Below are positions 4,576 through 62,498 of a stretch of DNA of 64,000 nucleotides, piece after piece. The notes below the pieces were generated by a model. It was not told where the DNA came from. It saw nothing but the letters and a program-made list of their open reading frames with translations, and searched no databases. Both the position numbers and the translations under genes were made by a program. The stretch covers positions 7,836 through 71,835 of the forward strand of contig JBJKQT010000107.1 of assembly GCA_046705065.1 (NCBI GenBank), in the 5' to 3' direction. Within the stretch, counting starts at the first letter, position 1. Every line of letters starts with the position of its first letter. This DNA comes from Desulfocapsaceae bacterium. Its GTDB lineage: Bacteria; Desulfobacterota; Desulfobulbia; Desulfobulbales; Desulfocapsaceae.

Positions 4576-6318
4576 TTGCCGGTGGATAAAAAATCGAGAA
4601 ATAAACAAACCATGCGTATTACACTCGTTGCTTTCAATGCCCGTTACACTCACTCCTGTCTGGGCCTTTTTCATGTCAGAAATGAGCTTGAAAATCATTT
4701 TCCCGACTTGAATCACGAGTTTTTGCAACTGACCATCAATGATTCCACTTATGAGGCGCTTTTGCGCATTACCGCGACCCGACCCGACTATGTTTTTTTC
4801 TCCGCTGCCATCTGGAACAGCAATGTGGTGGCGGATTTAATTCGCAGCCTCACAACCTGTCTGCCGGCTTGCAAATGTGTCGTGGGTGGTCCTCAGGCCG
4901 AGGTAATTGGGGCAACCCTGAAAGAGGGAACGTGTACGGTTGTGCTGGGGCCTGTTGAAGCAGTCAATTCCGATTTTTATAGGGATCTTGCGGCACGGAA
5001 TCTCAAGCTGGTGTATGGCTCATGTTCATCATCGTCTGCCAAGGGGTACTCCTTCGTCTCCCCATATCGGGACTCCGATTTTCGCTCGCACCTCGTCAAT
5101 AGACACGTCTATTATGAGACATCCCGCGGGTGTCCTTTTTCCTGTATCTACTGCCTGTCATCTGCACAGAAAGGTGTGCTTCACAAGGATCTGCCGCAAG
5201 TTGCGGCGGAACTTAGTCACATTCTCTCCCACCGTCCGAGGGTAGTCAGATTTATCGATCGGACTTTTAATGACAGACCTGAAAGGGCCTTGGCCATATG
5301 GCGGTTCTTGGTGGAGCAGCAAACACAGACGCTGTACCATTTTGAGATTTCCCCTGATCGTTTCACAGATGAGATGTTCGATTTCCTGCGTGGGGTTCCA
5401 CAGGGAATGTTTCAATTCGAGATAGGGATCCAGTCCACAAACCCCGATACTTTAAAGGCTGTCAGACGGCCAATGGATGTTGGCAAAGCTCATGAAATTG
5501 TGACCAAGCTGGCGTCTTTGAATACCATTTTTCTGCACGTCGATCTGATACTGGGCCTTCCGTATGAGACAGCGCAGAGTTTTTATCTGTCCTTTGCCGA
5601 TGTCTTTTCCATGTCCCCACACTATATCCAGATGGGTTTGTTGAAAATTCTTCCCGATACACCGATTTGTCATACTTCGGAGGAATATGGTTACCGATTT
5701 TGCAGCACTCCACCGTACAGCATTCTCGCAAATAAATGGATCGATCATGAAAAACTTCGTGATCTTTACTGGTTTTGTGAATGTGTGGAGCGATTTGTGA
5801 ATAATCGTTATTTCTTGAGCCTTTGGTCTTACTTGCGTCGGAAAGGTGAAGATATCACCGCGTTTTTTCTTCATCTGCTCTCCGTGTGTCTCTCACGCTC
5901 TTTTTTCAGTCTTTCTCCTACCCAGGAACTGCTTTGCTCCATGTTGCTTGCCGCAACCTCCAGCCGATCAGATGCTCCTGTGGTTTTTGAGTTGTTGCGT
6001 TTTGACTGGTTGCGCTGCGGACATCGCTTCTTACCAAAATGTCTGGCTACAGCGGAAGAGACATCTTCCGTTTTGAAAAAACGATTGTTTCATGTTCTTC
6101 CTGAAAGCATTGACGGTGTATATGACGTCGGTGAGAAAAACCAGTTCTGTAAAAAAGGGCTCTTTCTAATCTTCTCGGAGAACTCTCTGCTTGAGCTTGG
6201 GTATTCCGCTCAGAAAGGAAAGGGATGTCTTTGCTTTTTGCCGGAAAAAGTATCGGGACTCTACGGTTTCAGCCGGGTCGTTCACCTGCCGCTGGACGGC
6301 CGGTGTCTGCTCGCCTAA
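4576..6318 (+). CDS. B12-binding-domain radical SAM protein with DUF4080-like C-terminus
   Basis: N-terminal MRITLVAFNARYTHSCLGL is typical of this family, and the radical SAM cluster motif is YETSRGCPFSCIYC. TTG at 4576 has an AAAGGAG RBS. An alternative ATG lies at 4612. Confidence 0.75.
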   Translation: MPVDKKSRNKQTMRITLVAFNARYTHSCLGLFHVRNELENHFPDLNHEFLQLTINDSTYEALLRITATRPDYVFFSAAIWNSNVVADLIRSLTTCLPACKCVVGGPQAEVIGATLKEGTCTVVLGPVEAVNSDFYRDLAARNLKLVYGSCSSSSAKGYSFVSPYRDSDFRSHLVNRHVYYETSRGCPFSCIYCLSSAQKGVLHKDLPQVAAELSHILSHRPRVVRFIDRTFNDRPERALAIWRFLVEQQTQTLYHFEISPDRFTDEMFDFLRGVPQGMFQFEIGIQSTNPDTLKAVRRPMDVGKAHEIVTKLASLNTIFLHVDLILGLPYETAQSFYLSFADVFSMSPHYIQMGLLKILPDTPICHTSEEYGYRFCSTPPYSILANKWIDHEKLRDLYWFCECVERFVNNRYFLSLWSYLRRKGEDITAFFLHLLSVCLSRSFFSLSPTQELLCSMLLAATSSRSDAPVVFELLRFDWLRCGHRFLPKCLATAEETSSVLKKRLFHVLPESIDGVYDVGEKNQFCKKGLFLIFSENSLLELGYSAQKGKGCLCFLPEKVSGLYGFSRVVHLPLDGRCLLA

Positions 6319-6558
6319 CGGTGAAAATCGTCGTGGAAGAGAACGGTTTGAATCGGAAATCCGGTGGTGTATTGTATGACTTTGATATTAATTGTTAAAT
6401 TTCCTAAAAATCATATGTGAGAAATTTCATCCAACCTTTATAAAAGGATAGGCCTAAAGGCTGAAATTCCCGGAAAATGAATTGACGGCGGGAAAACATG
6501 TCGTATAGTTGCAGCTGTTACCGTTCTTATATCGACACGATAAAACCGAGGAGAGGAC

Positions 6559-7740
6559 ATGTCCGTATATCGAATCAAGACAATGAATTCCATTGCCGAG
6601 GAAGGCTTGAAACTTTTTCCGGAGAGTTTTCATGTTTCAGCGGATGAATCATCGCCCCACGGGATTGTTGTGCGAAGTGCCAAGGTAGATGTCGCCGATT
6701 ATCCCTCTCTTTTAGCGGTATCAAGGGCCGGATCGGGTGTCAATAACATCACCGTGGAAAAGGCAACGGAAAGGGGTGTCTGTGTTTTCAATACCCCGGG
6801 AGCAAATGCCAATGCCGTCGTTGATCTGGTGTTTCCGATGATTGGCGTCTGGATGCGTAACATCTATCAGGGCATTGAGTTCTGCCGTTCGCTTGCCGGA
6901 CTTGATCCCGAGAAAGTATCCGGCGAGGTCGAGCGGAGAAAGTCGGCTTATAAAGGAGTCGAGATCTCCGGAAAAAGCCTGGCCGTCGTAGGACTCGGAC
7001 AGATCGGTGTCAAGCTGGCTAACGGCGGAATTCACAGACATATGAAAGTAAAAGGATTCGATCCGACTCCGGGATTGGAGAACATTCATCAACTGTTGCC
7101 GGAGGTCGCTATTACAAGGACATTAAAAGCTGCCATTGGTGATGCCGATATCGTCAGCCTTCACCTGCCTTTGACCTCGGGAACCAGGCACCTCGTCAAC
7201 TCGGAGTTCATCGGGAAAATGAAACAGGGGGCAATACTTGTGAATTACGCACGTGGGCCGATTGTTGATGAACCGGCAGTACTTGAGGCTTTGAACAATG
7301 GTTTCCTCGCCGGATATATTACCGATTTTCCGACGAGGGCCAATATAAAACATCCCAAGGTATTGACTACACCGCATCTGGGGGCTTCTACCTCGGAATC
7401 CGAGGAGAACTGCGCCAGCATGGCGGTGAATGAACTTTGTGCATATCTTGAATACGGCAATGTCGCCAACAGCGTCAACTTCCCGAATATCGAGTCGACC
7501 CCTTCCGCAAAGGTCTGCAGCCGCTTGATCATGATCAATCGCGACGTTCCGGGGATGATCGCCTTCGCTACGAAGGTCATCAGTGGATACGGGGTAAACA
7601 TCGCCAGTTATCTTAACGAATCCAACGGTAAAATCGGCTATAATATCATTGATGTCGAATCGAAAATCCCTGATGGTATCCTGGGTGATTTTGAGAAGAA
7701 CCGCGATGTGATTCGCACCAGGCTTATCAAAATGTTTTGA
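6559..7740 (+). CDS. serA: D-3-phosphoglycerate dehydrogenase (2-hydroxyacid dehydrogenase with C-terminal ACT-like domain)
   Basis: NAD-binding motif VVGLGQIGVKLA, catalytic-domain stretch NYARGPIVDE...TPHLGAST, and a regulatory tail of about 80 aa. Confidence 0.8.
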   Translation: MSVYRIKTMNSIAEEGLKLFPESFHVSADESSPHGIVVRSAKVDVADYPSLLAVSRAGSGVNNITVEKATERGVCVFNTPGANANAVVDLVFPMIGVWMRNIYQGIEFCRSLAGLDPEKVSGEVERRKSAYKGVEISGKSLAVVGLGQIGVKLANGGIHRHMKVKGFDPTPGLENIHQLLPEVAITRTLKAAIGDADIVSLHLPLTSGTRHLVNSEFIGKMKQGAILVNYARGPIVDEPAVLEALNNGFLAGYITDFPTRANIKHPKVLTTPHLGASTSESEENCASMAVNELCAYLEYGNVANSVNFPNIESTPSAKVCSRLIMINRDVPGMIAFATKVISGYGVNIASYLNESNGKIGYNIIDVESKIPDGILGDFEKNRDVIRTRLIKMF

Positions 7741-8207
7741 AGCCGACCTGCTCAGGTGAGGCCTGCGAAAATCGAAAAATTATGACAGCAGGGTGATCGC
7801 CTCAGTAAGGAGCGGTTTTGTTTTTTTACTAATTATAGGCAGTTGTGCTTTTTTTTAAGGGGGAAAGGTCAGGGCGTTTTGCAAAGTTAGAGGAGTTTAA
7901 AAATCTTCACTTTTAATTTCTTGAATTTGCGAAAGTAATTTTAGGAGGTGCGGGCGGTTAAAGAAAAGTGTATAAAAATTTGTATCAACGACCTATTTGA
8001 ACGACCTGGGTGGCTGGGTAGAGCGGTGTCTAATTTAATGAAAATACAGTACTTATATGTAATGCAAATTTTTGGCATGAATCGTGCAGCGTTAATTATG
8101 CTTTTTATCTCTTCTCTCCTTTCTCCAGGAGAAGCCGGTTCTGCGTATGCGGAACCGGCTTTCCTGTTTCTGGGGCCTGCCGATTTCCTTCAATCATCAG
8201 TTGTCAT

Positions 8208-9137
8208 ATGAAGAGGCCCGTAAGCGTCATACTCCAAAGGTGCGATTATACCGCACAGTCTCTTGATGCTCTCATGGAAAGTGTTGCCCCTTCACTCGGG
8301 ATAGCCGGCAATTTAAAAGGCAAACGGATATTGATAAAACCTAACCTGATAAGCAGCCGGGGCCCGTTGCTCGCCTGCACCGATCCACGATTTATTATTG
8401 CAGTCTCCAGGTGGTTTGTAGACAGGGAGGCATCAGTCACAGTCGGGGATTCTCCCGCTTTCGGCAGCGCATCAGGGGTGCTCCGGCATATCGGCGCCTT
8501 AACCGAACTTATACGTTTGGGGGCGAAGGTGGTGGAGTTCGCTACCCCGAAAGCGTTTACCCTTTCCAATGACATCCGTGTAGGTGTAGCCGCAGAAGCC
8601 CTTGACTGTGATCTTATGGTGAATTTGCCGAAGGTCAAGGCCCACAATCAGATGCATACGACCATGGCAGTAAAGAACTTTTTCGGAATTGTCATAGGGA
8701 TGCGCAAATCTCTGCTGCACATGGTGCATGGTGGATCGCATGCACGGTTTGCAGGGGTTATTCTGGATCTTCAGGCGCTCTTACCAGAACACATCACCAT
8801 CGTTGACGGCATTTCGGCGATGCATGTGGCAGGCCCCTTGCATGGAAAGTCACTTGCTTTGCATTGTGTGGCTGCCTCGATGAATCCACTGGCAGTGGAT
8901 ACCGCACTGTATGCTGCGCTGGAGCTTGAACATGAAAAATGTCCGCTTTTGCGTGAGGCGAGAACACGAAGATATGAAGCTGTTTTTCCAAATGAAATTC
9001 GATATCTTTCCCTTAACCCCAGTGACTTTTACGGCTCCGGCTTTGTAGCGCCTACGGACTTGGCCCCCGTTCGATTCAATCCCTGTCGATTTCTTTATGG
9101 GCATCTCAAACGAATGGTTCTTGCCATACGGTCATAA
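8208..9137 (+). CDS. DUF362 domain protein
   Basis: ILIKPNLIS...CTDPRFIIAV...VGDSPAFGS...VNLPKVKAHNQMHTTMAVKNFFG matches the DUF362 pattern. Confidence 0.7.
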   Translation: MKRPVSVILQRCDYTAQSLDALMESVAPSLGIAGNLKGKRILIKPNLISSRGPLLACTDPRFIIAVSRWFVDREASVTVGDSPAFGSASGVLRHIGALTELIRLGAKVVEFATPKAFTLSNDIRVGVAAEALDCDLMVNLPKVKAHNQMHTTMAVKNFFGIVIGMRKSLLHMVHGGSHARFAGVILDLQALLPEHITIVDGISAMHVAGPLHGKSLALHCVAASMNPLAVDTALYAALELEHEKCPLLREARTRRYEAVFPNEIRYLSLNPSDFYGSGFVAPTDLAPVRFNPCRFLYGHLKRMVLAIRS

Positions 9138-9263: not shown

Positions 9264-10016
9264 ATGTTTGAATTAAGAGATAAAATTGCATTGGTCACCG
9301 GTGGTTCCCGGGGTATCGGCAGAGCGGTTGCCGTCAGGCTTGCCGAGCATGGCGTCGATTTGATCGTCAACTATGTTCGGCATCGAAAAGATGCCGAAGA
9401 AACATCGGCTGCCGTTGAAAAACTCGGGCGGCGTTGCCTTCTGGTAAAAGCCAACGTTGCCAATGAGCGCGATGTCAAGAATATGTTCAATGTCATCGGT
9501 GAGGAGTACGGGCGTCTGGATATTTTGGTGAGCAATGCAGCATCAGGTGTTTTGAAGCCGTGTCTGGAGTTAACCGAACGGCATTGGAACTGGGCTATGG
9601 ATATCAATGCCCGGGCTTTTCTTTTTCTTGTTCAACAGGCTGTTCCGTTTATGGCTCCCGGAAGTCGGGTGCTCGCCGTGTCAAGTCTCGGCGCCATCCG
9701 AGCCATTGAAAATTACACCATTGTCGGAGCGTCAAAGGCCGCACTTGAATCCCTGGTTCGCCATCTTGCCGTCGAACTGGGAGAAAAAGGAATCAATGTG
9801 AATACCATCAGTGCCGGTGTGGTGGACACGGACGCGTTGAAAAAGTTCCCGAACAGGGAAGCAATACTGGCCACTTCCATGGCAAAGACTCCTTTGGGGC
9901 GATTGACCACTCCCGACGACGTCGCGGATGTCGCTCTTTTTCTCTGTAGTCCGTTTGCGGCGATGATTCAAGGTCAGGTCATTATCGTTGACGGAGGATA
10001 TGCAATCAAGGGATAA
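9264..10016 (+). CDS. fabL: enoyl-[acyl-carrier-protein] reductase, FabL type (SDR family)
   Basis: Colinear similarity to Bacillus FabL throughout: LVTGGSRGIGRA..., VKANV, GRLDILVSNAASGVLKP, ENYTIVGASKAALESL, DTDALKKFPNRE, GQVIIVDGG. Confidence 0.8.
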   Translation: MFELRDKIALVTGGSRGIGRAVAVRLAEHGVDLIVNYVRHRKDAEETSAAVEKLGRRCLLVKANVANERDVKNMFNVIGEEYGRLDILVSNAASGVLKPCLELTERHWNWAMDINARAFLFLVQQAVPFMAPGSRVLAVSSLGAIRAIENYTIVGASKAALESLVRHLAVELGEKGINVNTISAGVVDTDALKKFPNREAILATSMAKTPLGRLTTPDDVADVALFLCSPFAAMIQGQVIIVDGGYAIKG

Positions 10017-10028
10017 GGGGCAGAGAGA

Positions 10029-10637
10029 GTGGGCAAAATGGTTTTTAGGACTCGAAAACCGCTGATTCTAGCCTCCGGATCGCCGAGGCGGAAGCGCTAT
10101 TTCGAAGATCTTGGTCTGAACTTTACCGTCTGCACGGCGGATGTCGTCGAGGCGCAGCTGCCGGAAGAACGCCCCGATGCGTTTGTCAAACGGATGGCCG
10201 GGGAAAAAGCGAGGGTTGTAATGGGCGAAAATCCCCAGAGCTGGGTCGTTGCGGCAGATACCGTGGTTATCCATCGGGATGTGGTTCTCGGCAAGCCCAA
10301 AGATCGGGATGAGGCGGTGAAGATGTTGATGCGTCTCTCCGGGGAAGAGCATTGTGTTCAGACCGGTTTTTGCATCGGGTGCCTGAACGAGAACGAAAGG
10401 ATGCTCGATAGCGTTTCGACAAAAGTCGTTTTTGACGATTTCTCAGAAGAAGTCGCAAAAGCCTATGTTGCCACGGGAGAGCCGTTGGACAAGGCAGGGG
10501 CATACGGTATCCAGGGCAGAGGAGCATTTTTGGTGGCGACAATCACGGGCTCGTATTCCAATGTGGTTGGCCTTCCGCTTCGCGAAGTAATTGGCTGCCT
10601 CTGCCAATATGGCGTAATAACACCTGTTTTATGTTGA
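10029..10637 (+). CDS. maf: Maf-like nucleoside triphosphate pyrophosphatase
   Basis: LILASGSPRRKRYFEDLGL...AADTVV...GKP...DKAGAYGIQG...GSYSNVVGLP. GTG start at 10029; an alternative ATG lies at 10038. Confidence 0.85.
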   Translation: MGKMVFRTRKPLILASGSPRRKRYFEDLGLNFTVCTADVVEAQLPEERPDAFVKRMAGEKARVVMGENPQSWVVAADTVVIHRDVVLGKPKDRDEAVKMLMRLSGEEHCVQTGFCIGCLNENERMLDSVSTKVVFDDFSEEVAKAYVATGEPLDKAGAYGIQGRGAFLVATITGSYSNVVGLPLREVIGCLCQYGVITPVLC

Positions 10638-10850: not shown

Positions 10851-12233
10851 ATGCCGTATCTTTTCAATAAATATTACCACTTCAGAGACATCGTTTTTTT
10901 CTTTGGCGAAGGTCTTCTTATCTTCATGTCCCTGTTGATTGTGGATTGGATCTACCGGGGAAGTTTTCTCTTCCGCATCAGTGCCTACGATGAGATTGTT
11001 CGGGCGGCTGTTGTAACGGTAATTTTTCAGTCGAGCCTGTACTTTTTCGATCTCTATGATTTAAAAAAAGATCTTTCTCTTTTCAACACGGCAACGCGTA
11101 TTACCCAATCCTTCGGAGTCGGATGCATTATCCTGGGAATACTTTATTATTCGTTGCCGAAGATGATTATCCCATCCAAAGTATTCTGGACGGGATACCT
11201 GATTCTCTGCGTGCTGATTTTGCTTTGGCGTGCTGTGTACTATTTCGTGCTGAGAAGAAGAATGTTCGTGAGGGAAATAGTCGTCCTCGGCACGGGGAAG
11301 TTAGCGGAAGATATTTCTCGGGAGATCGAAGGGAAACACAATTCCTCCTATCGGATTCAGGCGTTCATTGGTGACAGAAAAACGATCTATAATCCCAAAA
11401 GTGCACCGTTCTTCAAAGATATTGACGAAATGGAGACTATGCGGCCGGGAAAGCATATCGAGAAAATAGTGGTGGCACTCGATGATCGAAGAGGAGCGAT
11501 GCCCATTAAAGCGTTACTCAAATATAAAATGCGAGGGACCGTAATAGAACAGGGGATCAGTTTTTATGAGAGGGTAACGGGCCGATTGTTGGTGGAAAAC
11601 ATGGATCCGAGTTCGATAATCTTCTCCACCGGATTTGCACTCAGCAGATGGCTGTTTATGCTGAAACGAGTGGTCGATATTGCTCTTTCTCTTTTAATAC
11701 TGTTGATCTCCTCTCCGGTTCTTCTTCTCTCGGCTATCATAATCAAGATTGAATCTCCCGGACCGATTCTGTACAGTCAGGAACGAGTCGGTTCTAAAAA
11801 TAGACCGTTTAGGGTGTATAAATTACGCTCCATGCGTCAGGATGCGGAACAAAACGGCGCGGTATGGGCTAAAGAAAACGACGACCGTGTGACTCGTTTC
11901 GGACGAATCAGCCGAAAATTCCGCATTGATGAACTTCCTCAGCTCTGGAATGTGATGAAAGGAGATATGAGTCTTGTCGGTCCACGGCCGGAGCGTACCG
12001 TATTTGTAGAGCAACTCGCGGAAAAATTACCATTTTACCTGTTGCGGCATGACGTGAAGCCGGGTATTACAGGCTGGGCGCAGGTTTGTTACCCTTATGG
12101 GGCATCCGAGGAGGATGCGCTGCGCAAGCTGGAATATGATTTGTATTACATAAAAAATCTTTCCATCTCAATGGATCTCCTTGTGGTCTTCATGACTGTA
12201 AAAACAGTTTTGCGCAAAAAAGGAGCCAGGTGA
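10851..12233 (+). CDS. exopolysaccharide-priming polyprenyl glycosylphosphotransferase (bacterial sugar transferase family)
   Basis: Multi-TM N-terminus. The C-terminal catalytic domain reads KRVVDIALSLLILLISSPVLL...PGPILYSQERVG..FRVYKLRSM...DELPQLWNVMKGDMSLVGPRPE. Confidence 0.8.
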   Translation: MPYLFNKYYHFRDIVFFFGEGLLIFMSLLIVDWIYRGSFLFRISAYDEIVRAAVVTVIFQSSLYFFDLYDLKKDLSLFNTATRITQSFGVGCIILGILYYSLPKMIIPSKVFWTGYLILCVLILLWRAVYYFVLRRRMFVREIVVLGTGKLAEDISREIEGKHNSSYRIQAFIGDRKTIYNPKSAPFFKDIDEMETMRPGKHIEKIVVALDDRRGAMPIKALLKYKMRGTVIEQGISFYERVTGRLLVENMDPSSIIFSTGFALSRWLFMLKRVVDIALSLLILLISSPVLLLSAIIIKIESPGPILYSQERVGSKNRPFRVYKLRSMRQDAEQNGAVWAKENDDRVTRFGRISRKFRIDELPQLWNVMKGDMSLVGPRPERTVFVEQLAEKLPFYLLRHDVKPGITGWAQVCYPYGASEEDALRKLEYDLYYIKNLSISMDLLVVFMTVKTVLRKKGAR

Positions 12234-12278
12234 CAGGTATCACGGATGGGGATTATTATGTGGAATGCAAAAACCTAA

Positions 12279-15200
12279 ATGGTGGGGAAGGACAAGAAGA
12301 TCGGGAGCTCAATGATGACAGATGCAACCAGTCAAAACGAAGCATTGGAAGCCTTGCAGGCGTTCAATACTGCTATTACGACCACTCGCCTCTATCCTGC
12401 CGATGCCCCGCAGGTTCCGGCCTCGGTGGAAAAAGCCTATCAAGCAATCAAGCACCATCTGCGAAAAAACGGCGAGTTGGTAATAAGCATCCAGGAAGGT
12501 GAGGGAATGCTTTGCGGCATGCCGATTCAAAAGCAAACACTCGGCAAATTGCATGGTGCTGATGTTTTTCAACATATGAGGTTGCTCGATCTGTCATTTA
12601 CCGTTATGCGTCCGGGGATCGATCGCAAGACCTTTAAGTCGATACTCGGCTTTTTCACCACTCCTTATCAGAAGATTAAAAATGAAGGCGGAGGGCTGGA
12701 TTATGCCGCTCAAGTCGGTCTGGGAAAGGTTTTCCCCGAATCGTATGCCGTAAAGGTCGATCGTCCGCTGCAGGATTCGGATGCTGTTTTGCAGACCTTT
12801 GGAGCATCTCTGTCGGATACACGAACCGAGTGGGTGGATTTTCTCGCCGGAAATTTCGACGATGACTCCACTAGCCTGGAGGTTTCGCAGACTTTCGGCG
12901 ATCCGGACAAGGCAGCGAGAACAATTGTAGCATGTATTATAAAAATATTGCAGCAGATCCGAAAAACGGAACCTGAGGGATCGTCACCGGTATTTGACCG
13001 TATCCAGCAAAATGTAGATGAACTCTTGGATCAGCCCCGGAAACAGGAGGTGGCGTTGAAAACCGCGGATTTGCTTCTCCAAGGTCTCAATGGGGCGATT
13101 CTCAGCGAATTTGTATCTCAAAAGTTCACAGGGTTTTTTGGGGAAGCCTTGTTGAACGCCTTTATGGTCAAGGTCAGCAACGATGCCTTTCGGGAAATCA
13201 TCGACTCTCTCCGTGAGAAGGAAAAAACGTATCAAGAAAAATACGGTGTCGATTCCAATCAATCTCGTTATGTGCAAAAAACGACTTCTCGCCTTTTAGA
13301 TACGATCCGAGGAAAACAGTTTCAGGCCCTTGAAAAGACACGGTCAATCCTGGAGGAAGGAGAAAAGGAAAGGCGGAGAAAACGTATTCAAGCAGGTCTC
13401 AATGCGATACTGCAGGGCAAGATATCCGTTTTGGAAAATGATGAGGTTGTCCAACATCTTCCCCAAACGGTCGAACGGCTTCTTGCCAACCACAAAGACG
13501 ACGTTGCCGCTCTTTTGACCGAGAAACTCATCAAGGAGTTGCTTAAAAGAAATAAAAAAATCGAAGAAAAGATAAGCGGAAGCCTGGGGCGCATCGGTAG
13601 TATTCTCGTCCAGTCCAAGAAGTGGGATTGGCTGGAAAAATTGGCCGTGCCGTTTCTGCTCTGGGTTAAAGAGGCTGATAAGGCGGATTCTGTATATGAG
13701 GAGATTGTCACTGTTCTTAAACAGGTCATGCTGCACGGTTGGGAAGTGGGCAGCAACAAGACGGCAGATCAGATTCTCAATGTTCTGTTCGGTATTCGGT
13801 CCGGACTTATTCCGAAGTCCCAGAAAGTGATACAACTCACCGGAAAGATACAGGATAAGTTCATGGACAGGAGATTCCTGGAAGCGCTTTTGACCAGATG
13901 CCTGACCGATCCGGCAGATGAAGTCCTGGGGCAAAGGCTCAGCATGCAGGGGCCCGTTGCAGCGAGTTTCCTGATTTCAAGGCTTCTCAGTTCCGATAAC
14001 CCTGGAGAACGTATTCGGATATTGGATCTGCTTGCCAATATGGGATCATTGTTGCCGGCGGTTATCGTGGAAAAGTTGCCGGAGCCCATGCCGTGGTTCG
14101 GCAAGAGAAATCTTCTTAAACTTTTGGCAGAGACCGGGAATGAATCGCATATGGATGCAGTTCTTGCTTATCTCAGTCATGATGATGTGCGGGTACAGCA
14201 GGAGGCCTTTGTCTGTCTCTACAAGATTTGTGGAAACAGCAGGAAAAAAGCTTTACTCGATGCTCTTGCCTTGGCTGGAGAAACAATGAAAATTCAAGTT
14301 GTTAAGGCCTTGTCTTCTCTGGTGGATGATGAGGTGGCCGGGCACTTGATAGAACTCTTACAGGATCAGGAAAACTTTTCCCAAAATACCAGAAGCCCGC
14401 TTATCCAACAGATAAGCCGTACTTTGGCCCGTTCAACATCCGAGGAGGGCCGTGAAGCTTTGGAGAAGTTCCTTGCACAGCGTCGGAAGGGCAGTGCTAA
14501 AAAGCTTGAGCCGGAGGTCTGGAAATCTGTGGAAAACGCCATTCAGCAGATTCGGGACAATCAGGAGAACCAGGGCTCGTCAGCCGGTAAAATGCAGGAA
14601 AATACTCCCTATGCTTTTCCGATAAAAGAATTGGAAGGGGAACAACTTATTACCAATTTTTCCGAAGAACAGCAAATCAGAGCCTACCTTGATCAGGATA
14701 ATAAGGCAGGCGCCAAAGTCATGCTTTCGGACCTCATAACACGTACCGCTAAAATGCGGCAGTTTGTCCAAGCGGAGAAATTGCGTGAATGGCTTATCGA
14801 AATCGACCCGCTGGCCCTGACTGAAATCATTCAGGCAGCCGAAATAATCGAGAGCGAAAAGACATCCTCCATAGATAAAGAGCATCTGGAGACGTGGAGC
14901 GGCCTCTACGATGTTCTGACTACGGAAGAATTCAATGCCCTTTATTATTCTTTTGAATCCAAACAATATGCCGCCGAAGAAGTGATCATCAAACAGGGAA
15001 CGATTCGTCCCTCGTTGTTCTTCATCAATTCCGGACGGGTGAAACTCTATTTCAAAGAAGACGATTCCGAGACCTTGGTCAAGGTAGCCGATCGAGGTGA
15101 AGTCCTCGGGGCAACGTCTTTTTTTTCCGCCTCTGTCTGGACCATTAATGCCGCAGCTCTGGGGTATACAGAGGTTTCCATACTGGATTATGAGAAGATC

Positions 15201-15668
15201 GTGGAGTGGCATAAAGACTATCCGGCCCTGGAGTCGAAGCTCAATGATTTTTGCATGCGATTCGAAGGAAGCAAAGACTTTTTTCAGAAAACCGGGAAGG
15301 ATCGAAGAGCGGACGAGAGGGTCGCGCTCACAGGCCGGATTACGGCGATTGTCCTTGATCGGTATGGAAAAGAAACAGGCATCGTTTCCAAAGGAGATCT
15401 GACCGATATTTCCATCGGGGGAACATCGTTTTTTCTACATATTTCCCAAAAACGCAATGCCCGGTTACTTCTTGGGAGAAACGTACGTGTCGTTTTTCCT
15501 ACGGAATCAATGTCGTCCGGCAAGCTTTTCAGGAAAGAAGGAGTCATTGTAGCCGTTTTTTCCCATCGAGTGATGCAAAACGAATACTCAGCTCACGTTC
15601 GTTTTGATAGTCCGCTGGAGGCTAAAGATATGCAAGGAATCACCGATGCCTTAAAACAGGAACAGTAA
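12279..15668 (+). CDS. large multidomain protein: N-terminal unknown region, HEAT-like repeats, cNMP-binding-like domain, C-terminal PilZ domain
   Basis: 1129-aa ORF. The likely start is ATG 12312, with GGGAG 4 nt upstream. HEAT-like repeats read LLSSDNPGERIRILDLLANMG and LSHDDVRVQQEAFVCLYKI. The cNMP-like fold reads IIKQGTIRPSLFFINSGRVKLY...GEVLGATSFF. The PilZ motifs are RRADER and DISIGG. Confidence 0.7.
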   Translation: MVGKDKKIGSSMMTDATSQNEALEALQAFNTAITTTRLYPADAPQVPASVEKAYQAIKHHLRKNGELVISIQEGEGMLCGMPIQKQTLGKLHGADVFQHMRLLDLSFTVMRPGIDRKTFKSILGFFTTPYQKIKNEGGGLDYAAQVGLGKVFPESYAVKVDRPLQDSDAVLQTFGASLSDTRTEWVDFLAGNFDDDSTSLEVSQTFGDPDKAARTIVACIIKILQQIRKTEPEGSSPVFDRIQQNVDELLDQPRKQEVALKTADLLLQGLNGAILSEFVSQKFTGFFGEALLNAFMVKVSNDAFREIIDSLREKEKTYQEKYGVDSNQSRYVQKTTSRLLDTIRGKQFQALEKTRSILEEGEKERRRKRIQAGLNAILQGKISVLENDEVVQHLPQTVERLLANHKDDVAALLTEKLIKELLKRNKKIEEKISGSLGRIGSILVQSKKWDWLEKLAVPFLLWVKEADKADSVYEEIVTVLKQVMLHGWEVGSNKTADQILNVLFGIRSGLIPKSQKVIQLTGKIQDKFMDRRFLEALLTRCLTDPADEVLGQRLSMQGPVAASFLISRLLSSDNPGERIRILDLLANMGSLLPAVIVEKLPEPMPWFGKRNLLKLLAETGNESHMDAVLAYLSHDDVRVQQEAFVCLYKICGNSRKKALLDALALAGETMKIQVVKALSSLVDDEVAGHLIELLQDQENFSQNTRSPLIQQISRTLARSTSEEGREALEKFLAQRRKGSAKKLEPEVWKSVENAIQQIRDNQENQGSSAGKMQENTPYAFPIKELEGEQLITNFSEEQQIRAYLDQDNKAGAKVMLSDLITRTAKMRQFVQAEKLREWLIEIDPLALTEIIQAAEIIESEKTSSIDKEHLETWSGLYDVLTTEEFNALYYSFESKQYAAEEVIIKQGTIRPSLFFINSGRVKLYFKEDDSETLVKVADRGEVLGATSFFSASVWTINAAALGYTEVSILDYEKIVEWHKDYPALESKLNDFCMRFEGSKDFFQKTGKDRRADERVALTGRITAIVLDRYGKETGIVSKGDLTDISIGGTSFFLHISQKRNARLLLGRNVRVVFPTESMSSGKLFRKEGVIVAVFSHRVMQNEYSAHVRFDSPLEAKDMQGITDALKQEQ

Positions 15669-15681
15669 AGAAGGAGTTCCC

Positions 15682-16701
15682 ATGGCGATTACAAGTTATC
15701 CGGAAGAACAGCGGATTCATGAGGTCTTTGACCAAGGAGAGAAGGAAAAAGGAAAGAAACTTCTGCTCGAACTCATTATGACTGCGGCCAAGCAGAGAAA
15801 GTTCACCGATGCGGAGAACCTCCGTAAATGGTTGATGGACGTGGACTCTATGGCCTTGACCGAAAGTATCAAAGCGGCGAAAATCATCGAAGAGGAGAAA
15901 GCTTCATCTGTTGATAAAAACTTTATAAACGTTTGGCCTGCCCTTTCCGCCGTACTCGAACCCAGCGATTTTTTCACCCTCTATCACTCTTTGGAACATC
16001 GGCATTTTGCCAAAGGGGAAATGATTGCCAAGCAAGGGTCGAAGCAATCGGCACTGTATTTTATCAACAGCGGCAGAGTCGAACTTTTCTATAATGGGAA
16101 TGATGGATCGACGCCGATTAAAACCCTCGGTCCCGGAGAGATCCTCGGAAGTGCAACTTTTTTCGAAGCTTCGGTGTGGACGCTGTCCGCCAGGAGTCTC
16201 GATGCGGACCTGTCTCTCTTGAAAGTGGACAATCTCCAGGACTTGAAAGAGGATCATCCAGCTTTGGAATCGAACCTGAATGATTTCTGCCTTAGGTTTA
16301 GAATTCCCTATGAATCCATCAAGAAAGTTGGCCGTGACCGCAGGGTTTTGGAGCGCAAACGTATTTCCGGCAGGGTGGCAATGGCTTTGCTGGACAGGGA
16401 GGGTAAGGACGCCGGGAGTGGTGTGCGGGGCGATCTCTTCGATATTTCCATCGGCGGCCTTTCCTTTTTCCTGCGTATTTCCCAGAAAAAAAACGCCAGG
16501 CTTCTCTTGGGCAGAAAGGTTCGGTTTACCCTGCCTTTGAAGGGTGATCGTACTTTCAGCATAACCGGCGATATCCTTGCTGTTCGCAGCCAACCGGTGG
16601 TCGGCAATGAGTATTCCATTCACAGTCGTTTTGAAAGGGAGTTGAATCCCAGTGAGTTAAAGGAGTTGCTGACGGTGAATAAGAAAGTGGAAGAATCATG
16701 A
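15682..16701 (+). CDS. cNMP-binding-like + PilZ protein, paralog of the C-terminal ~340 aa of the upstream gene
   Basis: An AAGGAG RBS lies in the 13-nt gap after 15668. The protein is colinear with residues ~794-1129 of the upstream protein, sharing FINSGRV, PALES.LNDFC.RF and DISIGG.SFFL.ISQK.NARLLLGR.VR. The PilZ motifs are RRVLER and DISIGG. Confidence 0.75.
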   Translation: MAITSYPEEQRIHEVFDQGEKEKGKKLLLELIMTAAKQRKFTDAENLRKWLMDVDSMALTESIKAAKIIEEEKASSVDKNFINVWPALSAVLEPSDFFTLYHSLEHRHFAKGEMIAKQGSKQSALYFINSGRVELFYNGNDGSTPIKTLGPGEILGSATFFEASVWTLSARSLDADLSLLKVDNLQDLKEDHPALESNLNDFCLRFRIPYESIKKVGRDRRVLERKRISGRVAMALLDREGKDAGSGVRGDLFDISIGGLSFFLRISQKKNARLLLGRKVRFTLPLKGDRTFSITGDILAVRSQPVVGNEYSIHSRFERELNPSELKELLTVNKKVEES

Positions 16702-18470
16702 CCGAGCGGCTCGATCCGATTTCCCGGTTTTATACGGCACATCTTCCTCAAGGTCATTTTGATAAAAAGGTTCTCACGGCCGATTGCCCATTTTGTTCAA
16801 GACGACATACTGAAAATAAAGGAAAAATAATTGTCTTTTTAAACAAGGGCAGTTTTTTTCACGGATATTTTCGTTGCCTGAACCGCTGTGTCCCCGGAGG
16901 GTTTCCTCTCTGGTTTGCCCGTCTTGCCGGAATCGATCCGGCAGAAGTGCCAGGTTTTGATCCGGATCGGGAGCCGTTTTTACTTCAAACTGATTATCCT
17001 GCAAGCAATATCAACGACGAAATCAAGAGCTACCAGGATCGGATGACTCCCGAATTATCGGCCTATTTTCAACAGGCCGATGTGACATCGTCCGCACTTT
17101 CGGAAATGCGTATCGGGTATAATGGACGCTATCTGATTTATCCTTATTTTCAAAGCGACGGTAATTGCTACTCGGCTCGGTGCGTTTTTCCCGACAAACC
17201 TAATGATTTCTTTTGGCACGGTGACGAGCGTTTTTTTTCTGAAAAATTTCAGTTGTTCAACGTTCAGGATATCGAACGGTGTGAAAACGGGACTCTCTTC
17301 CTGTGCGAGGGAGAAGATAATCTACTGACGTTGAAACAGCTCGGTTTTCCGGGAATTGCCGTTCCCGACAGCCGGGCTCTGGAAGCGGTCGATCCCGATC
17401 GCTTTGCCTTTGTAAATACCCTGTTCATCGTTACGGTCAACAATGCTGAGTCTGAGGCCGCTGCCAGGTCCGTTGCGGCCAGAATCGGCTATAAGGTCCG
17501 CCTGTTTACCTGGCCCGCAGGTTTGTCACGTAATTTTTGTTTGTGGGAACTGGCAAAGGATAAGGAAAAGAAGTTCCGCACAGTCGTCTCTTCGATGATC
17601 AATGCCTCGCGGGCTTTTTCTCCTTTTCCGAGCCCGGAGAAGGAGGAAAAACGGTTCTTTGACTGTCTCTTATTGGAAACAGGGAAGGAGTACGGTGCTC
17701 TGCGCTCCGGATATACCAAGCTGGATGCCGCCCTTGGCGGCATCCACGGAATCAACGTCATGGGCGGAGCACCGAAAATCGGCAAATCGTGTTTTATGAT
17801 TCAGATCGCCACCGAGATGGCCGGAAGGGGCATTCCCGTTCTGTATTATGATTTTGAAAACGGGAGGCAAAAGATCTACCAACGAACACTTGCCCGGATG
17901 AGCAGATTGACCACAGGTCAGTTGCGGCAACAGAACTGGACGGAACATGAGAGGCAAAGCTATGACTTGGCCTGCAGGGATTTTAAGAAGATGCTTTTTT
18001 CCTTCCGGGTGGTCAATGACCGCAAGGTGAATCCGGAAATCATGCGGCGGCATATCGATTTTATTCGTCATGAGACCCGATCGGAATATACCGTGGTCGT
18101 CATCGACAGTCTCCATAAACTGCCGTTTAAGGATATTTCGGAGAGGCGTAGCGGGATAGACGCCTGGCTGCGCCAACTGGAATCGATACGGGACGACCTT
18201 CAGGTTTCCTTTCTTGTCATTTCGGAGTTGACGAGAGGTGCTGAAGGATCCTACAAGGAGACGCCGCATCTCGGAATATTCAAGGGAACAGGCGATATCG
18301 AATACAGTGCCGACAATGCGATGGTCTTTTTCCCGGCCTGGGACCAGATGGACGACAGCAAGACCAGGAGCAACGCGCTTTGGCTGGTGGCGAGCCGGGA
18401 GCATAGTCCTGGGCTGATTAGCCACTACACCTTGGATTATCCCTATTGGGGGTTCGTCGAAGAAGAATAA
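16698..18470 (+). CDS. T7 gp4/Twinkle-like protein: Cys4 zinc finger + primase core/Toprim + DnaB-family helicase C-terminal (RecA-like) domain
   Basis: ATGA start/stop overlap with the upstream gene.
- Zinc finger: CPFC...CLNRC.
- DnaG-like stretch: [26 protein letters not shown].
- Toprim glutamate motif: [13 protein letters not shown].
- DnaB_C-like motifs: Walker [25 protein letters not shown] and [11 protein letters not shown]. Confidence 0.7.
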
Positions 18471-19783
18471 TTCGCATCAATCCATCGTTGCAGAGAAGCC
18501 AAGGCGGTTTCAACCCGCATTTTCGCCCGCAACTTTTTCGGCACCTTTTTCTCCCAGGGGGGGAAAAGGCCGAAGGTAATGTTGGACGGCTGAAAATGTT
18601 TGGTCTTGCTTTGTGTCAGATGACCGATCAGGGCACCCAGGGCAGTATCGGGCGGCGGAACAACAGCTTGCCTGCCCGAGAATGTCCGTGCCGCATTGAT
18701 TCCTGCCAGCAACCCCATGGCTGCCGATTCCACGTAGCCTTCCACGCCGGAGAGCTGTCCCGCCAAAAAGAGGTCCTGCCGCGCTTTCGTTTGCAGCGTC
18801 GGCTCTAAGAGGTCCGGGGCGCAGACAAAGGTATTGCGATGGATGGAGCCGAGACGGCTGAATTCGGCGTTTGCCATACCGGGGATCATGCGGAATATTC
18901 GTTTTTGCTCCCCATAGGTGAGTTTGGTCTGGAAACCCACCATATTGTAATGGCTTCCCTCACGGTCTTCCTGTCTAAGCTGAACCACGGCATACGGTTC
19001 CCTGCCGGTTCCTGGGGCGGCAAGACCCACCGGTTTCATGGGACCGAAACGCAATGTGTCAACCCCGCGGGCGCACATTACCTCAATGGGCAGACAGCCC
19101 TCGAAGTACTCAGCCTCTTCGAAATCCTTCAGCGGCACATATTCCGCTTTTCGCAGCTCCTGCATGAAGTGAAGATACTGTTCTTTGTCCATGGGGCAAT
19201 TCAGATAGTCGCCCTCACCCTCGTCATAACGCGATTTTCGATAGATGATGGATGTATCCAGTGAATCTACCTGAACGATCGGTGCAATGGCATCGTAGAA
19301 GGAAAGTCCTTCTTTGCCGGTAAGTTTTGCAAGGGAGGCAGCCATTTCATCCGAGGTCAAGGGGCCGGTGGCCAAAATGATCGGGCATCCGGTTGCAGCA
19401 GGCAAGTCCTTCAGCTCTTCCCTGACGGTTTCGATGAGCGGGTGGTTAGCGATGACTTCAGTGATGTGGGCGGCAAAACGTTCTCTATCCACAGCCAGGG
19501 CTCTCCCGGCCGGTACGGCAGTTTGCCCGGCCGTCTGCATGATCAACGAGTTGAGCCTTCTCATCTCTTCTTTTAACAAGCCCACGGCAGAGGCGACATC
19601 GTTGGAGCGAAACGAGTTGCTGCAAACCAACTCCGCGAGATTCTCGGATGTGTGGGCAGGGCTGAATCTATGCGGTTTCATATCGTACAGACGCACGTGG
19701 CAACCCCTCGCCGCGATCTGCCAGGCGGCCTCGCATCCGGCCAGTCCGCCGCCGATTATCAGGATCTTTTTCTCAGTCGTCAT
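18443..19783 (-). CDS. trmFO: methylenetetrahydrofolate--tRNA-(uracil-5-)-methyltransferase TrmFO
   Basis: [21 protein letters not shown]... and full-length Gid/TrmFO-like sequence. The start at 19783 forms an ATGA overlap with the stop of the upstream 3D-domain gene. Confidence 0.9.
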
Positions 19784-20334
19784 GGTCTTTCTATTTGAAC
19801 CGGCACCCGTCGTCTGCCCCATTGCATGGCATCGTCGTAGCTGTCAAAATAAAGGTCCAGCCGGTTGGGGCCTTTGATGGCGCTTCCCCGGTCTTCGACG
19901 GTGCCCCATCCATATCCCGGCACATACATCCGGGTTCCGAACGGGTAGTATCTGGTATCGGCGGCAATCGTCCCGTCTTCGGGCAGCAGATACCATGGAA
20001 AAAGGACGATACGGATGGGGATCATCCACGGATGTTCGATGCTGTCGGCCGAGAACAGCCCCGGTTGCGGCTCATGCGGTTTGGTGCCGCTTGCCGTGAG
20101 TCCCGAATACGGTTCTCCCGCCTGCGGGCCGGAACTGTAGTAGCGGTTCCAGATATCGAGCTTTAAGTATTTGATGCTTCCTCTGACGTAATTCCCGCAG
20201 TTGTCTTCACCGCAATACGCGGTTGTTTCCATCACCCGTCCCACCGGCATCTTGGCGCAACTGCCAAGCAGAAGTATCGCCGCAAGAAAAGGGAGCAGGA
20301 CAGAGGGGCGTGAAAGGCAAGTCGGTTTTTTCAT
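19780..20334 (-). CDS. 3D-domain (MltA-like) lipoprotein
   Basis: Lipobox-like [26 protein letters not shown] when started at 20334. The C-terminal [34 protein letters not shown] is a 3D domain. Confidence 0.7.
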
Positions 20335-23360: not shown

Positions 23361-26000
23361 ATGAAAAAGGACAGGTACCGGGAGTTCTTTGAGCGCTCCG
23401 CAGATGCCATTTTAATCATCGAGGATAACAGGTTTGTTGATTGCAATGATGCCGCCGTAAAAATGCTCCGGTATGGAAATAAAAACGAGCTGTTGAATAT
23501 TCACCCTTCCGAACTTTCTCCCCAATTTCAGCCAGATGGCCGAGTGTCGTATGAAAAGGCGGATGAAATGATGAAGTTGGCCTTTAAAAACGGCACTCAC
23601 CGATTTGAATGGAACCACAAGCGGGCCGACGGAGAAGTGTTTCCGGTTGAGGTTTCACTTACATCCGTCTCTGATGGTGTCACCGCCAGCCTTCACGTTG
23701 TCTGGAGGGAGATTTCCGACCGAAAAAAAATAGAAGAGAGTCTGCGTCGTCTTACTTCCATTGTTGAAACCACGAGCGACCTGGTGGCGACAGTGACTCG
23801 GAATGGCAGGATTATGTACATGAATTATTCTGGCAGAAGGATGTTGGGATGGAATCTGGATGATGACCTTGATGGCAAAAATATCCATGACGTCCATTCC
23901 AGGCAAAGCCTCGAAATCGTACTACAGGAAGGACTTCCGGTCGCAATGGAGAAAGGTATCTGGCATGGTGAAACGACGATTATCGATAAACAGGGAAAAG
24001 ATATACCGGTTTCTCAAGTGATTATGGCTCACAAAAACAGGCAAGGGCTGGTCGAGTATCTCTCGACAATAATGCGTGATGTTTCAGAGAGGAAAAAATC
24101 GGAACAATTTCTCACGAACATCATTAACACGGTTGCAGACCCTATTTTCGTAAAAGACCATGAACACCGATTCGTGGTACTCAATGAGGCATTTTGCGAA
24201 TTTGTCGGCTTCCCGCTGGATGAACTTCTGCATAAAAGCGATTTTGATTTTTTTCCAACGGATCAGGCGAAGGAATTCTGGAAAATAGATGAGCAGGTCT
24301 TAGCTTCAGGCAATGAGAATATCAACAATGAAGTCGTTTCCGATATAAAAGGTTATACCCATATTGTGTCGACGAAAAAAACAGTCTTCGTTGACGACGA
24401 AGGAAAAAAGTTTCTGGTCGGGGTTATTCGGGATATAACAGAGCAAAAGAAGACGGAAAAAAATCTTCACGACAATCTGCATTTGCTTAACTCGATAATT
24501 GAAAATCTGCCCATCTGCGTCAAGATAATCGGTAGGGATGGTTCTCTTTTGGATATGAATCCATCGGGACTGGCCATGATAGGTGCTCCAAGTAAAGATG
24601 CTGTTGTCGGAAGGCAACTGTGCGATTTAATAGTTGAAAATGATAAGGAGGCCTTCCTTAAGTTTAACAAAGATGTCTGTGAAGGGAAAAAAAGTAGCCT
24701 GAGGTTCAGTATGAAAGCCCTCGACGGATCCCTTCATGTTATGGATTCTTTCGCAGTTCCTCTTTATTATGGGCCAAAGGATGAAATCGTACAGCTTGGT
24801 ATAACCAGAGATATTACCAAACGGATAGCTGCTGAAAGAGAAAAGGTAAAACTGGAAAGCAGGTTGCAACAATCGCAAAAAATGGAGGCCATAGGTACTC
24901 TTGCTGGCGGTATTGCTCATGATTTTAATAATATACTCTCTGCTATTCTTGGCTATGCCGAACTCTCGTTACTGTCTGTTCCAAAAGACAGTAACTTGTA
25001 CAAGGACCTTTCCCAGATTTTTAAAGCAGGTAACCGTGCCAGGGAACTGGTCAGGCAGATATTGACCTTCAGCAGAAGATCGGAGAGAGTGTCGAAACCG
25101 GTACGTCTTCAATTAATCATGGAAGAAACCTTGAAACTGCTACGGGCAACGTTGCCCTCAACAATTGACATTCACCAGACTATCGACAAAAGCTGCCATC
25201 CGATATTTGCCGACCCCTCTGAGATGCATCAATTACTGATGAACCTTTGCACCAATGCCTATCATGCCATGCGGGATAGCGGGGGAATACTGACGGTAAG
25301 CCTGCAAGAAATCACTGGAAACGGTGAAATGCAAAACGGGGTGGCGGAACTCTCCCCCGGGAACCATTCAAAAATTGAAATTCGCGATACCGGTATCGGG
25401 ATGACTAAAGAAACCGCAAGTCGGATTTTCGAACCGTATTTCACTACGAAAAATCCGGGAGAAGGAACCGGACTGGGGTTGTCGGTTGTCCATGGCGTTG
25501 TTAAGAGCAATGGAGGGTGGATTACTGTAGAGAGCGAGCCAGGTATGGGAACGGTGTTCGCCGTATATTTTCCCTGTATCGCAGATGACGAGAAGATCGA
25601 TGAAGTATTGGTTCCTTTGGATTTGCCGGGGGGAAATGAACATATTTTGCTTGTCGACGATGAACCTATTCTGGTGGAAATGTTGGGAAGGACCATGGAA
25701 CAGCTTGGCTACAAGGTGGATTCGTTGACTAAGAGTGTCGAGGCCCTCGCTTTGTTTAGTAAAAAACCGGACGCCTTTGACCTCGTTATAACCGACATGA
25801 CAATGCCTGAGTTAACAGGGGATCGACTTGCTGAGGAACTGCTTCTCATCCGCTCCGATATTCCCATTATACTGTGCACGGGGTTTAGTGAGAAAATAGA
25901 TGAGGTGCAGGCAAAAAAAATTGGAATCCGGAGACTTGTCTCCAAACCCATTTCACAAAAAGACCTGGCATATACAATTCGGGAGGTTCTATCTCTATGA
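23361..26000 (+). CDS. multi-PAS hybrid sensor histidine kinase with C-terminal receiver domain
   Basis: Several PAS-like repeats. HisKA box HDFNNILSAILGYAEL, HATPase motif GTGLGLSVVHG, and receiver ILLVDDEP...DLVITDMTMPELTG. Confidence 0.85.
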   Translation: MKKDRYREFFERSADAILIIEDNRFVDCNDAAVKMLRYGNKNELLNIHPSELSPQFQPDGRVSYEKADEMMKLAFKNGTHRFEWNHKRADGEVFPVEVSLTSVSDGVTASLHVVWREISDRKKIEESLRRLTSIVETTSDLVATVTRNGRIMYMNYSGRRMLGWNLDDDLDGKNIHDVHSRQSLEIVLQEGLPVAMEKGIWHGETTIIDKQGKDIPVSQVIMAHKNRQGLVEYLSTIMRDVSERKKSEQFLTNIINTVADPIFVKDHEHRFVVLNEAFCEFVGFPLDELLHKSDFDFFPTDQAKEFWKIDEQVLASGNENINNEVVSDIKGYTHIVSTKKTVFVDDEGKKFLVGVIRDITEQKKTEKNLHDNLHLLNSIIENLPICVKIIGRDGSLLDMNPSGLAMIGAPSKDAVVGRQLCDLIVENDKEAFLKFNKDVCEGKKSSLRFSMKALDGSLHVMDSFAVPLYYGPKDEIVQLGITRDITKRIAAEREKVKLESRLQQSQKMEAIGTLAGGIAHDFNNILSAILGYAELSLLSVPKDSNLYKDLSQIFKAGNRARELVRQILTFSRRSERVSKPVRLQLIMEETLKLLRATLPSTIDIHQTIDKSCHPIFADPSEMHQLLMNLCTNAYHAMRDSGGILTVSLQEITGNGEMQNGVAELSPGNHSKIEIRDTGIGMTKETASRIFEPYFTTKNPGEGTGLGLSVVHGVVKSNGGWITVESEPGMGTVFAVYFPCIADDEKIDEVLVPLDLPGGNEHILLVDDEPILVEMLGRTMEQLGYKVDSLTKSVEALALFSKKPDAFDLVITDMTMPELTGDRLAEELLLIRSDIPIILCTGFSEKIDEVQAKKIGIRRLVSKPISQKDLAYTIREVLSL

Positions 26001-62422: not shown

Positions 62423-62498
62423 GCGGGCATAGCTCAGTTGGTAGAGCGCAAGCTTCCCAAGCTTGAAGTCGCGAGTTCGAGCCTCGTTGCCCGCTCCA
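62423..62498 (+). tRNA. tRNA-Gly (anticodon CCC), CCA encoded
   Basis: The cloverleaf folds by hand:
- Acceptor stem GCGGGCA/TGCCCGC.
- D arm GCTC-AGTTGGTA-GAGC.
- Anticodon arm CAAGC-TTCCCAA-GCTTG.
- T arm GCGAG-TTCGAGC-CTCGT.
- 3' end TCCA. Confidence 0.9.

Follow-up and report, generated by a model that had tools for sequence, protein, structure and literature searches.

The window analysed here, a 64,000-nt stretch of the genome of a Desulfocapsaceae bacterium (GCA_046705065.1, contig JBJKQT010000107.1, positions 7,836–71,835, forward strand), carries a cluster of three genes, here called g1, g2 and g3. The first encodes a large alpha-solenoid protein ending in a cyclic nucleotide monophosphate (cNMP)-binding-like domain and a predicted PilZ domain, the second a short protein with the latter two domains, and the third a helicase of superfamily 4 (SF4) related to T7 gp4 and Twinkle, with an apparently degenerate primase domain (Table 1). 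All three are genuine genes, each with many homologues. As read in the initial annotation, they are tightly packed on the same strand: the g1 stop codon (TAA, 15666–15668) is followed by the 13-nt spacer agaaggagttccc, containing AAGGAG, and by the g2 ATG at 15682, and the g2 stop and g3 start codons overlap in ATGA (16698–16701). A promoter/terminator scan found no terminator-like sites between the genes, and with a single strand, minimal spacing and no intergenic terminators the cluster is probably a co-transcribed operon. Promoter-like sites, including one just upstream of g1, were not in excess over shuffles in the scanned region.

The C-terminal half of g3 is a DnaB-type domain (Pfam DnaB_C, 82.7 bits, E = 3.7e-23), which also matched solved DnaB structures (E = 5e-10 to 1e-6). 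PHROG 239, a "DNA primase/helicase" family, spans residues 135–557, and the AlphaFold model (predicted local distance difference test score (pLDDT) 81.6) gave T7 gp4 structures as its best Foldseek matches (5IKN, 6N9X and 1Q57; E ~1e-20, ~500 columns), with human Twinkle (7T8B/7T8C, ~610 columns) among the top structural matches and DnaB next. A profile built from the N-terminal 320 residues matched the gp4 primase fragment 1NUI at its Toprim domain (E = 6.7e-4). The Pfam zinc-finger and Toprim models gave no match on g3 itself, and these regions were compared to outgroups, i.e. remoter g3 relatives (31–33% identity over residues 102–588) that score Pfam Zn_ribbon_DnaG, Toprim_2 and DnaB_C. 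The zinc region of g3 aligns with the CHC2 Zn_ribbon_DnaG of the outgroups; in the g3 family it is of Cys4 type, and the ligands C30, C33, C60 and C64 are invariant among 24 homologues. The SF4 motifs H1, H1a, H2, H3 and H4 are present and conserved in g3, with VVVIDS as Walker B and ISELTR, and a lysine occupies the position of the DnaB arginine finger. Across the g3 family the helicase motifs, likewise conserved in the outgroups, take the form of a GAPKx-type Walker A, ISELxR and FKGSGDIEY. A four-ligand zinc ribbon, a Toprim-type fold and SF4 motifs are thus all found in the order typical of T7 gp4 and Twinkle.

The Toprim motifs themselves tell a different story from the helicase motifs. 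The outgroups have the Toprim glutamate in EGE (EG[AI] in two), the D-x-D motif in F-D-N-D-E-x-G and the downstream aspartate in D-I-N-D-L, whereas the g3 family retains EGE (E206), reads x-N-[NS]-x-E at the D-x-D position and x-x-L-W-[EQ]-L at the downstream one. In g3 of the window, D-x-D is replaced by V-N-N and the DINDL aspartate is gone. Of the catalytic acidic set only E206 therefore remains, all three aspartates, which we take to be the equivalents of T7 D207, D209 and D237, being lost family-wide. The motif comparison with the outgroups, together with the structural and profile matches, indicates that g3 has the gp4/Twinkle architecture with a probably dead primase site. The Cys4, primase/Toprim and DnaB-type composition initially proposed for g3 hence holds as an architecture (PHROG, Foldseek, 1NUI and outgroups), but judged from its residues the label "primase-helicase" overstates the protein, since the catalytic aspartates are lost.

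Known primase-helicases of the gp4 type come from phages and plasmids and, in the case of Twinkle, from mitochondria. g3 resembles T7 gp4 in its layout, with a zinc ribbon followed by a Toprim-type domain, a linker and a RecA-type SF4 helicase, in giving its best structure matches there, and in the Toprim glutamate (EGE), Walker A/B and H1a. It differs in being chromosomal and vertically inherited whereas gp4 is phage-borne, in aligning V-N-N with the D-M-D of T7 F-D-M-D-E-A-G, in having a Cys4 zinc site with a longer insert, and in a sequence identity of only ~15%. Animal Twinkle is a gp4-type protein encoded in a cellular genome, with an inactive primase domain and a retained helicase (PMC3610141, PMC7231222). 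Like metazoan Twinkle, g3 appears to be a domesticated gp4-type protein in which the primase site has been inactivated (as predicted for g3) and the helicase kept; unlike it, g3 has an invariant Cys4 where animals have lost the zinc-binding cysteines, host and compartment differ, and a replicative role of g3 is unsupported by evidence. With DnaB, g3 shares the homologous C-terminal domain, but Pfam finds no DnaB N-terminal domain in it, and the NCBIfam DnaB models match the C-terminal domain only and far below their equivalog cut-offs (TIGR00665, 68.8 vs 385.25 bits). The arginine of the DnaB "RESG" motif is moreover a lysine in g3 (FKGSG), and the H3 glutamine a glutamate.

The true start of g1 is probably M12 or M13 (12312/12315) rather than 12279, because a GGAG precedes it by 5 nt and the earliest residue invariant among the homologues is M13. 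Pfam reports cNMP_binding at residues 895–976 (48.9 bits) and HEAT_2 at residues 609–664. The AlphaFold model (pLDDT 81.5) begins with a small alpha/beta domain and continues with an alpha-solenoid at approximately residues 165–770, a cyclic-nucleotide-binding domain (CNBD) and a beta-barrel; Foldseek matched the CNBD to those of PKG, a CNG-channel and CooA, and otherwise returned only generic solenoids with poor TM-scores. Residues 593–750 were matched to alphaRep/HEAT proteins by a profile of the N-terminal regions (E = 7e-33); this profile search of PDB gave only artificial alphaRep/HEAT proteins for the N-terminus and hence no specific function. Both g1 and g2 had initially been described as ending in a cNMP-like domain followed by PilZ with intact motifs, and both motifs are indeed found in each, but Pfam reports no PilZ domain for the g1 sequence of the window. 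PF07238 (PilZ) does match many g1 homologues, and the motifs RADER (R1010, R1014) and DISIGG (D1043, S1045, G1047/G1048) lie in and beside a region modelled as strands (residues 1015–1109), with R1010, R1014, D1043, S1045, G1047 and G1048 invariant or nearly so among 20–22 g1 homologues. A PilZ domain in g1 is thus supported by identity to g2, motif conservation, the PF07238 matches of homologues and the beta-barrel of the model. One g1 homologue (L080 in our numbering of loci, 6548–8938) has an in-frame stop in the N-terminal region and may be a pseudogene or reflect a sequencing error. A related family of ~800-aa HEAT, cNMP and PilZ proteins (PilZ 36.9 bits) occurs at L164, L168 and L169 (about 5940–8364), where the gene is followed by one for a dihydrouridine synthase (Dus) and neither maf nor g3 is nearby.

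In g2, Pfam reports cNMP_binding at residues 107–188 (53.1 bits) and PilZ at residues 242–326 (25.4 bits; cut-off 22.5), the latter with the motifs RVLER and DISIGG. The profile searches thus recovered DnaB_C in g3, cNMP_binding in g1 and g2, HEAT_2 in g1 and PilZ in g2, leaving the zinc-finger and Toprim parts of the initial assignment to the other comparisons. The 47% identity between g2 and residues 801–1129 of g1 identifies g2 as a truncated tandem paralogue and, as judged from sequence, a recent duplicate of the C-terminal sensor module of g1. Homologues of g2 fall into size classes of 335–340 and 560–590 aa. Two PilZ modules upstream of g3, i.e. the trio of the window, were found at 11 of the 111 loci having an upstream PilZ module, all of them either in the clade to which the window belongs (g3 identity 77% or more) or in one deep clade (53–57%). 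The trio as a conserved unit was accordingly rejected, g2 being a lineage-specific partial duplicate; the adjacency of g1 and g3 across Desulfobulbales is the part of that proposal that stands, as a facultative link. Stand-alone g2-like cNMP/PilZ paralogues (48–50% identical to g2) were also seen at unrelated loci (L096, 2915–3940; L098, 1347–2369), that of L098 in the same metagenome-assembled genome (MAG) as the g3 locus L007.

With a PilZ domain and the RxxxR and D/NxSxxG motifs, both g1 and g2 have the sequence features of PilZ receptors, and the canonical-looking PilZ domain of g1 probably binds cyclic di-GMP (c-di-GMP). The cNMP-like domains have the CNBD fold according to Pfam (g1 and g2) and Foldseek (PKG/CNG-channel), and in fold they resemble the CRP/PKA-type CNBD. 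They differ from it in the phosphate-binding cassette (consensus GEVxGxxSFFDASVWT), which is free of arginine and lysine throughout the family; the arginine contacting the cyclic phosphate is absent from g1, g2 and the rest of the family, and alignments to PKG end at this cassette. Canonical cAMP/cGMP binding by these domains is therefore doubtful, and to call them cNMP-type receptors, as was done at first, overstates what is a match in family and fold.

PilZ proteins of known function bind and modulate a partner machine, and PilZ proteins have also been connected with chromosome organisation (PMC10313047). g1 and g2 share the PilZ barrel with RxxxR and D/NxSxxG with YcgR, MapZ and Myxococcus CdbS/PilZ-DnaK, but their PilZ domain is fused to a cNMP-like domain, in g1 also to a ~800-aa HEAT solenoid, and their candidate partner is an SF4 helicase. 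The claim that no PilZ/primase-helicase system has been described was borne out by the literature searched (including c-di-GMP/DnaB, bacterial Twinkle homologues and Desulfobulbales), where we found no description of such a pairing or of the g3 family. What is new would best be filed as a gp4-type helicase, domesticated and primase-dead, together with a PilZ architecture and context, the helicase and PilZ kinds themselves being known.

Table 1 Features of the g1-g2-g3 cluster and its upstream flank (positions in the window).
Feature	Position	Strand	Description
g1	12279..15668	+	1129 aa as annotated (~1117–1129 aa by true start); alpha-solenoid/HEAT, cNMP-binding-like and predicted PilZ domains
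g1 HEAT repeats, PBS/alphaRep type	14055..14528 (aa 593–750)	+	N-terminal profile match; Pfam HEAT_2
g1 cNMP-binding-like domain	14961..15206 (aa 895–976)	+	Pfam 48.9 bits; cassette arginine absent
g1 predicted PilZ beta-barrel	15303..15608 (~aa 1009–1110)	+	RxxxR, DxSxxG; likeness to g2; AlphaFold strands
g1-g2 spacer	15669..15681	+	13 nt, containing AAGGAG
g2	15682..16701	+	339 aa; cNMP-like and PilZ domains
g3	16698..18470	+	590 aa; T7 gp4/Twinkle-type SF4 helicase, primase domain degenerate
g3 Cys4 zinc ribbon	16785..16889	+	Invariant ligands; outgroup alignment
g3 Toprim-like fold	17286..17522 (aa 197–275)	+	1NUI profile match; motif comparison with outgroups
g3 DnaB_C/RecA-type NTPase	17700..18335 (aa 335–546)	+	Pfam; DnaB structure alignments; helicase motifs
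Promoter-like site	12230..12259	+	GTGACA-18-TATTAT, 10/12, just upstream of g1; consensus match only
epsB	10851..12233		TIGR03013 XrtA/PEP-CTERM-type polyprenyl glycosylphosphotransferase (EpsB_2, 453 bits), between maf and g1

The pairing of g1 and g3 was tabulated from both sides. Seen from g3, 83 loci were compared, two of them duplicates of others and one beginning too near g3 to judge; in 65 of them (65/81 when the duplicates are left out) the gene immediately preceding g3 on its strand encodes a PilZ protein, the median gap being 53 nt (range −11 to 365 nt) and 14 pairs overlapping. A metagenome scan from the g1 side found g3 directly downstream of g1 at 50 of 64 informative loci. The pairing reaches deep branches in which g3 is only 47–57% identical, including a locus (L093, g3 47% identical) with maf, a 1117-aa g1, a 562-aa cNMP/PilZ gene and g3. 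Such a frequent, ancient and tightly spaced arrangement fits a functionally related operon.

The cluster of the window is flanked upstream by maf and epsB, which encodes a sugar transferase of the XrtA/PEP-CTERM type, and downstream by the convergent trmFO and mutL. Mapping with tblastn on the fetched Desulfobulbales loci gave a fixed backbone of maf, g3 and the convergent trmFO and mutL, with epsB, g1 and g2 as variable members between maf and g3, in that order; at the sampled loci TrmFO was mostly, and MutL often, encoded downstream of g3. Homologues of g3 number more than 1200, and those with a named organism are from Desulfobulbales, an order to which sulfur disproportionators and relatives of cable bacteria belong. 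Relatives of g3 are encoded in 430 species genomes, the best 80 of which are Desulfobulbales except for a few MAGs with loose or odd labels. One contig of a MAG labelled "Leptospira biflexa" (L082) carries a Desulfobulbales-type g1-g3 pair (g3 61% identical) and is probably mis-binned. When compared to the proteins of the window, homologues had median identities of 68% for TrmFO, 63% for g3, 54% for both MutL and Maf, and 44% and 34% for the C-terminal and N-terminal parts of g1. By this measure g3 changes about as slowly as TrmFO and is a vertically inherited core gene; g1 is fast-evolving.

From these observations we give an even chance to the reading that g3 is a primase-less ring translocase/helicase serving a core DNA transaction and that g1 and g2 serve as dispensable adaptors responding to c-di-GMP. 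The cluster would be a vertically inherited chromosomal unit of Desulfobulbales, probably an operon, and g3 a domesticated protein of the T7 gp4/Twinkle type, most likely a ring-forming, NTP-driven translocase or helicase on single-stranded nucleic acid that, like animal Twinkle, is probably past primer-making. Its housekeeping-level conservation suggests a core role, which may be in DNA repair, restart or recombination. g1 would provide a large alpha-solenoid scaffold with a C-terminal PilZ domain probably binding c-di-GMP and a cNMP-like domain probably devoid of canonical cAMP/cGMP binding. g1 and g2 may be co-expressed with g3 and act as accessory adaptors that recruit, sequester or modulate g3 in response to c-di-GMP, and such an adaptor would be dispensable since g1 and g3 each survive without the other in some lineages. 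A stronger version, in which the HEAT-PilZ adaptor (g1, with its copy g2) binds c-di-GMP and directly gates an order-wide, core chromosomal, primase-dead Twinkle-like ring helicase, seems to us unlikely.

Several observations weigh against a mechanistic link, and most of them favour an alternative in which the genes are neighbours by descent: g1 and g2 would be c-di-GMP effectors for another output, e.g. the envelope or exopolysaccharide, and g3 an independent housekeeping helicase that perhaps shares their transcript. At 16 loci the order is maf-g3 with g1 absent, and in the g3 tree these loci fall into two clades embedded among those with g1, from which it follows that g1 is ancestral and was lost at least twice. 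Conversely, g3 is missing at 14 of the 64 g1 loci; L150 and L154 read maf-g1-trmFO, and at some others unrelated metabolic genes come after g1. Another lineage has a split pair of a HEAT gene (749 aa) and a g2-like gene (346 aa, 36% identical) without g3, g2-like paralogues also occur elsewhere in the same genomes, and the 800-aa HEAT-cNMP-PilZ relative adjoins a Dus gene. The entire neighbourhood from maf to mutL, including the convergent trmFO, is syntenic, and within one order such synteny means that conserved adjacency may reflect descent alone; furthermore, g1 evolves much faster than g3, and in the lineage of the window the end of epsB lies 46 nt before the annotated start of g1. As regards g3 itself, primase loss is deduced solely from residue substitutions, and E251, an invariant residue close to the lost D-x-D, could compensate in part. 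Descent alone accounts less readily for a pair that lies side by side and in the same direction in ~80% of loci, whether counted from g1 or from g3, with small gaps or overlaps, and that persists in lineages whose g3 has diverged to 47–57% identity, and epsB, present at a minority of loci (e.g. L006, L007, L009, L010, L063 and L073), is not a general partner. We rate inheritance as mere neighbours as a serious possibility that nevertheless falls short of an even chance. As either gene of the pair can occur without the other, the region is syntenic and the rates are unequal, caution is due, and the functional link between g1 and g3 is best described as plausible and facultative. Where it is present, epsB could locally link the PilZ protein with exopolysaccharide synthesis.

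That g3 is instead the remnant or cargo of a prophage, plasmid, integrative and conjugative element (ICE) or defence island, with the PilZ genes incidental or part of defence, might be suggested by its architecture, which is typical of phages and plasmids, by its nearest motif-complete relatives, which are found on short contigs, one 40%-identical relative following a DNA methylase gene, and by PADLOC, which linked g2 through its cNMP domain to Pycsar-type effectors and g3 to a DRT-associated DnaG-like model (E = 9e-4). The PADLOC matches are however weak and partial only, and, as stated in the initial annotation, no integrase, phage or conjugation genes occur among the neighbours, which encode Maf, the exopolysaccharide sugar transferase, TrmFO and MutL. 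In addition, g3 is fixed between housekeeping genes in the sampled loci and conserved at their level, the GC content is unremarkable, and no close g3 relatives were found in viral contigs (one weak match only) or in collections of phages and plasmids, where partial identity reached 29% at most. A prophage, ICE or defence origin was rejected on these grounds (synteny, neighbours, the PADLOC result and the absence of near relatives among phages, plasmids and viruses) and is in our view barely credible. A role of g3 as main replicative helicase, and perhaps primase, replacing or supplementing DnaB/DnaG, with c-di-GMP gating replication through g1 and g2, is also very improbable. The presence of g3 across the sampled Desulfobulbales genomes, its housekeeping-level conservation and the label "replicative DNA helicase" given to some homologues in their records would agree with such a role, but its DnaB score lies far below the NCBIfam cut-off, the DnaB N-terminal domain is absent and the Toprim aspartates are lost. 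To our knowledge canonical DnaB is near-universal in bacteria, which we count against g3 as the replicative helicase; neither the window nor the loci fetched for comparison contained a second, canonical DnaB, whole genomes lying outside that search.

If the favoured reading of g3 as a primase-less core helicase with c-di-GMP-responsive adaptors is right, a gp4-type helicase fixed in the chromosome, silenced as a primase and constrained like a housekeeping gene would parallel Twinkle independently and would point to an as yet unknown core DNA transaction in Desulfobulbales. Should its frequent operon partner be a c-di-GMP-sensing adaptor, a ring helicase would be a new class of c-di-GMP output, testable with purified proteins, and direct gating, if true, would place a motor of DNA replication, repair or restart under second-messenger control.

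Some further observations concern the surroundings of g3 and its remoter relatives. The 3' ends of g3 (+) and the convergent trmFO/GIDA gene (−, 18443–19822) overlap by 28 nt (18443–18470), and the g3-trmFO adjacency itself is kept in many Desulfobulbales loci. The DNA methylase ahead of the 40%-identical g3 relative is of N6/N4 type (L084, 2–733) and lies on a 2.9-kb contig, which may represent a mobile outgroup context. A 38%-identical relative without g1 (L089) is followed by a 155-aa open reading frame (9810–10277), a nucleotide cyclase fragment that matches the C-terminal part of the adenylate/guanylate cyclase catalytic domain only (profile positions 106–180 of 183, 25.2 bits). Elsewhere in the window, the sole Rfam match is one tRNA gene (62423–62495), and 5 kb downstream of the cluster (23361–26000) lies the gene of a hybrid histidine kinase (879 aa) that combines several PAS domains with HisKA, HATPase and a receiver domain.

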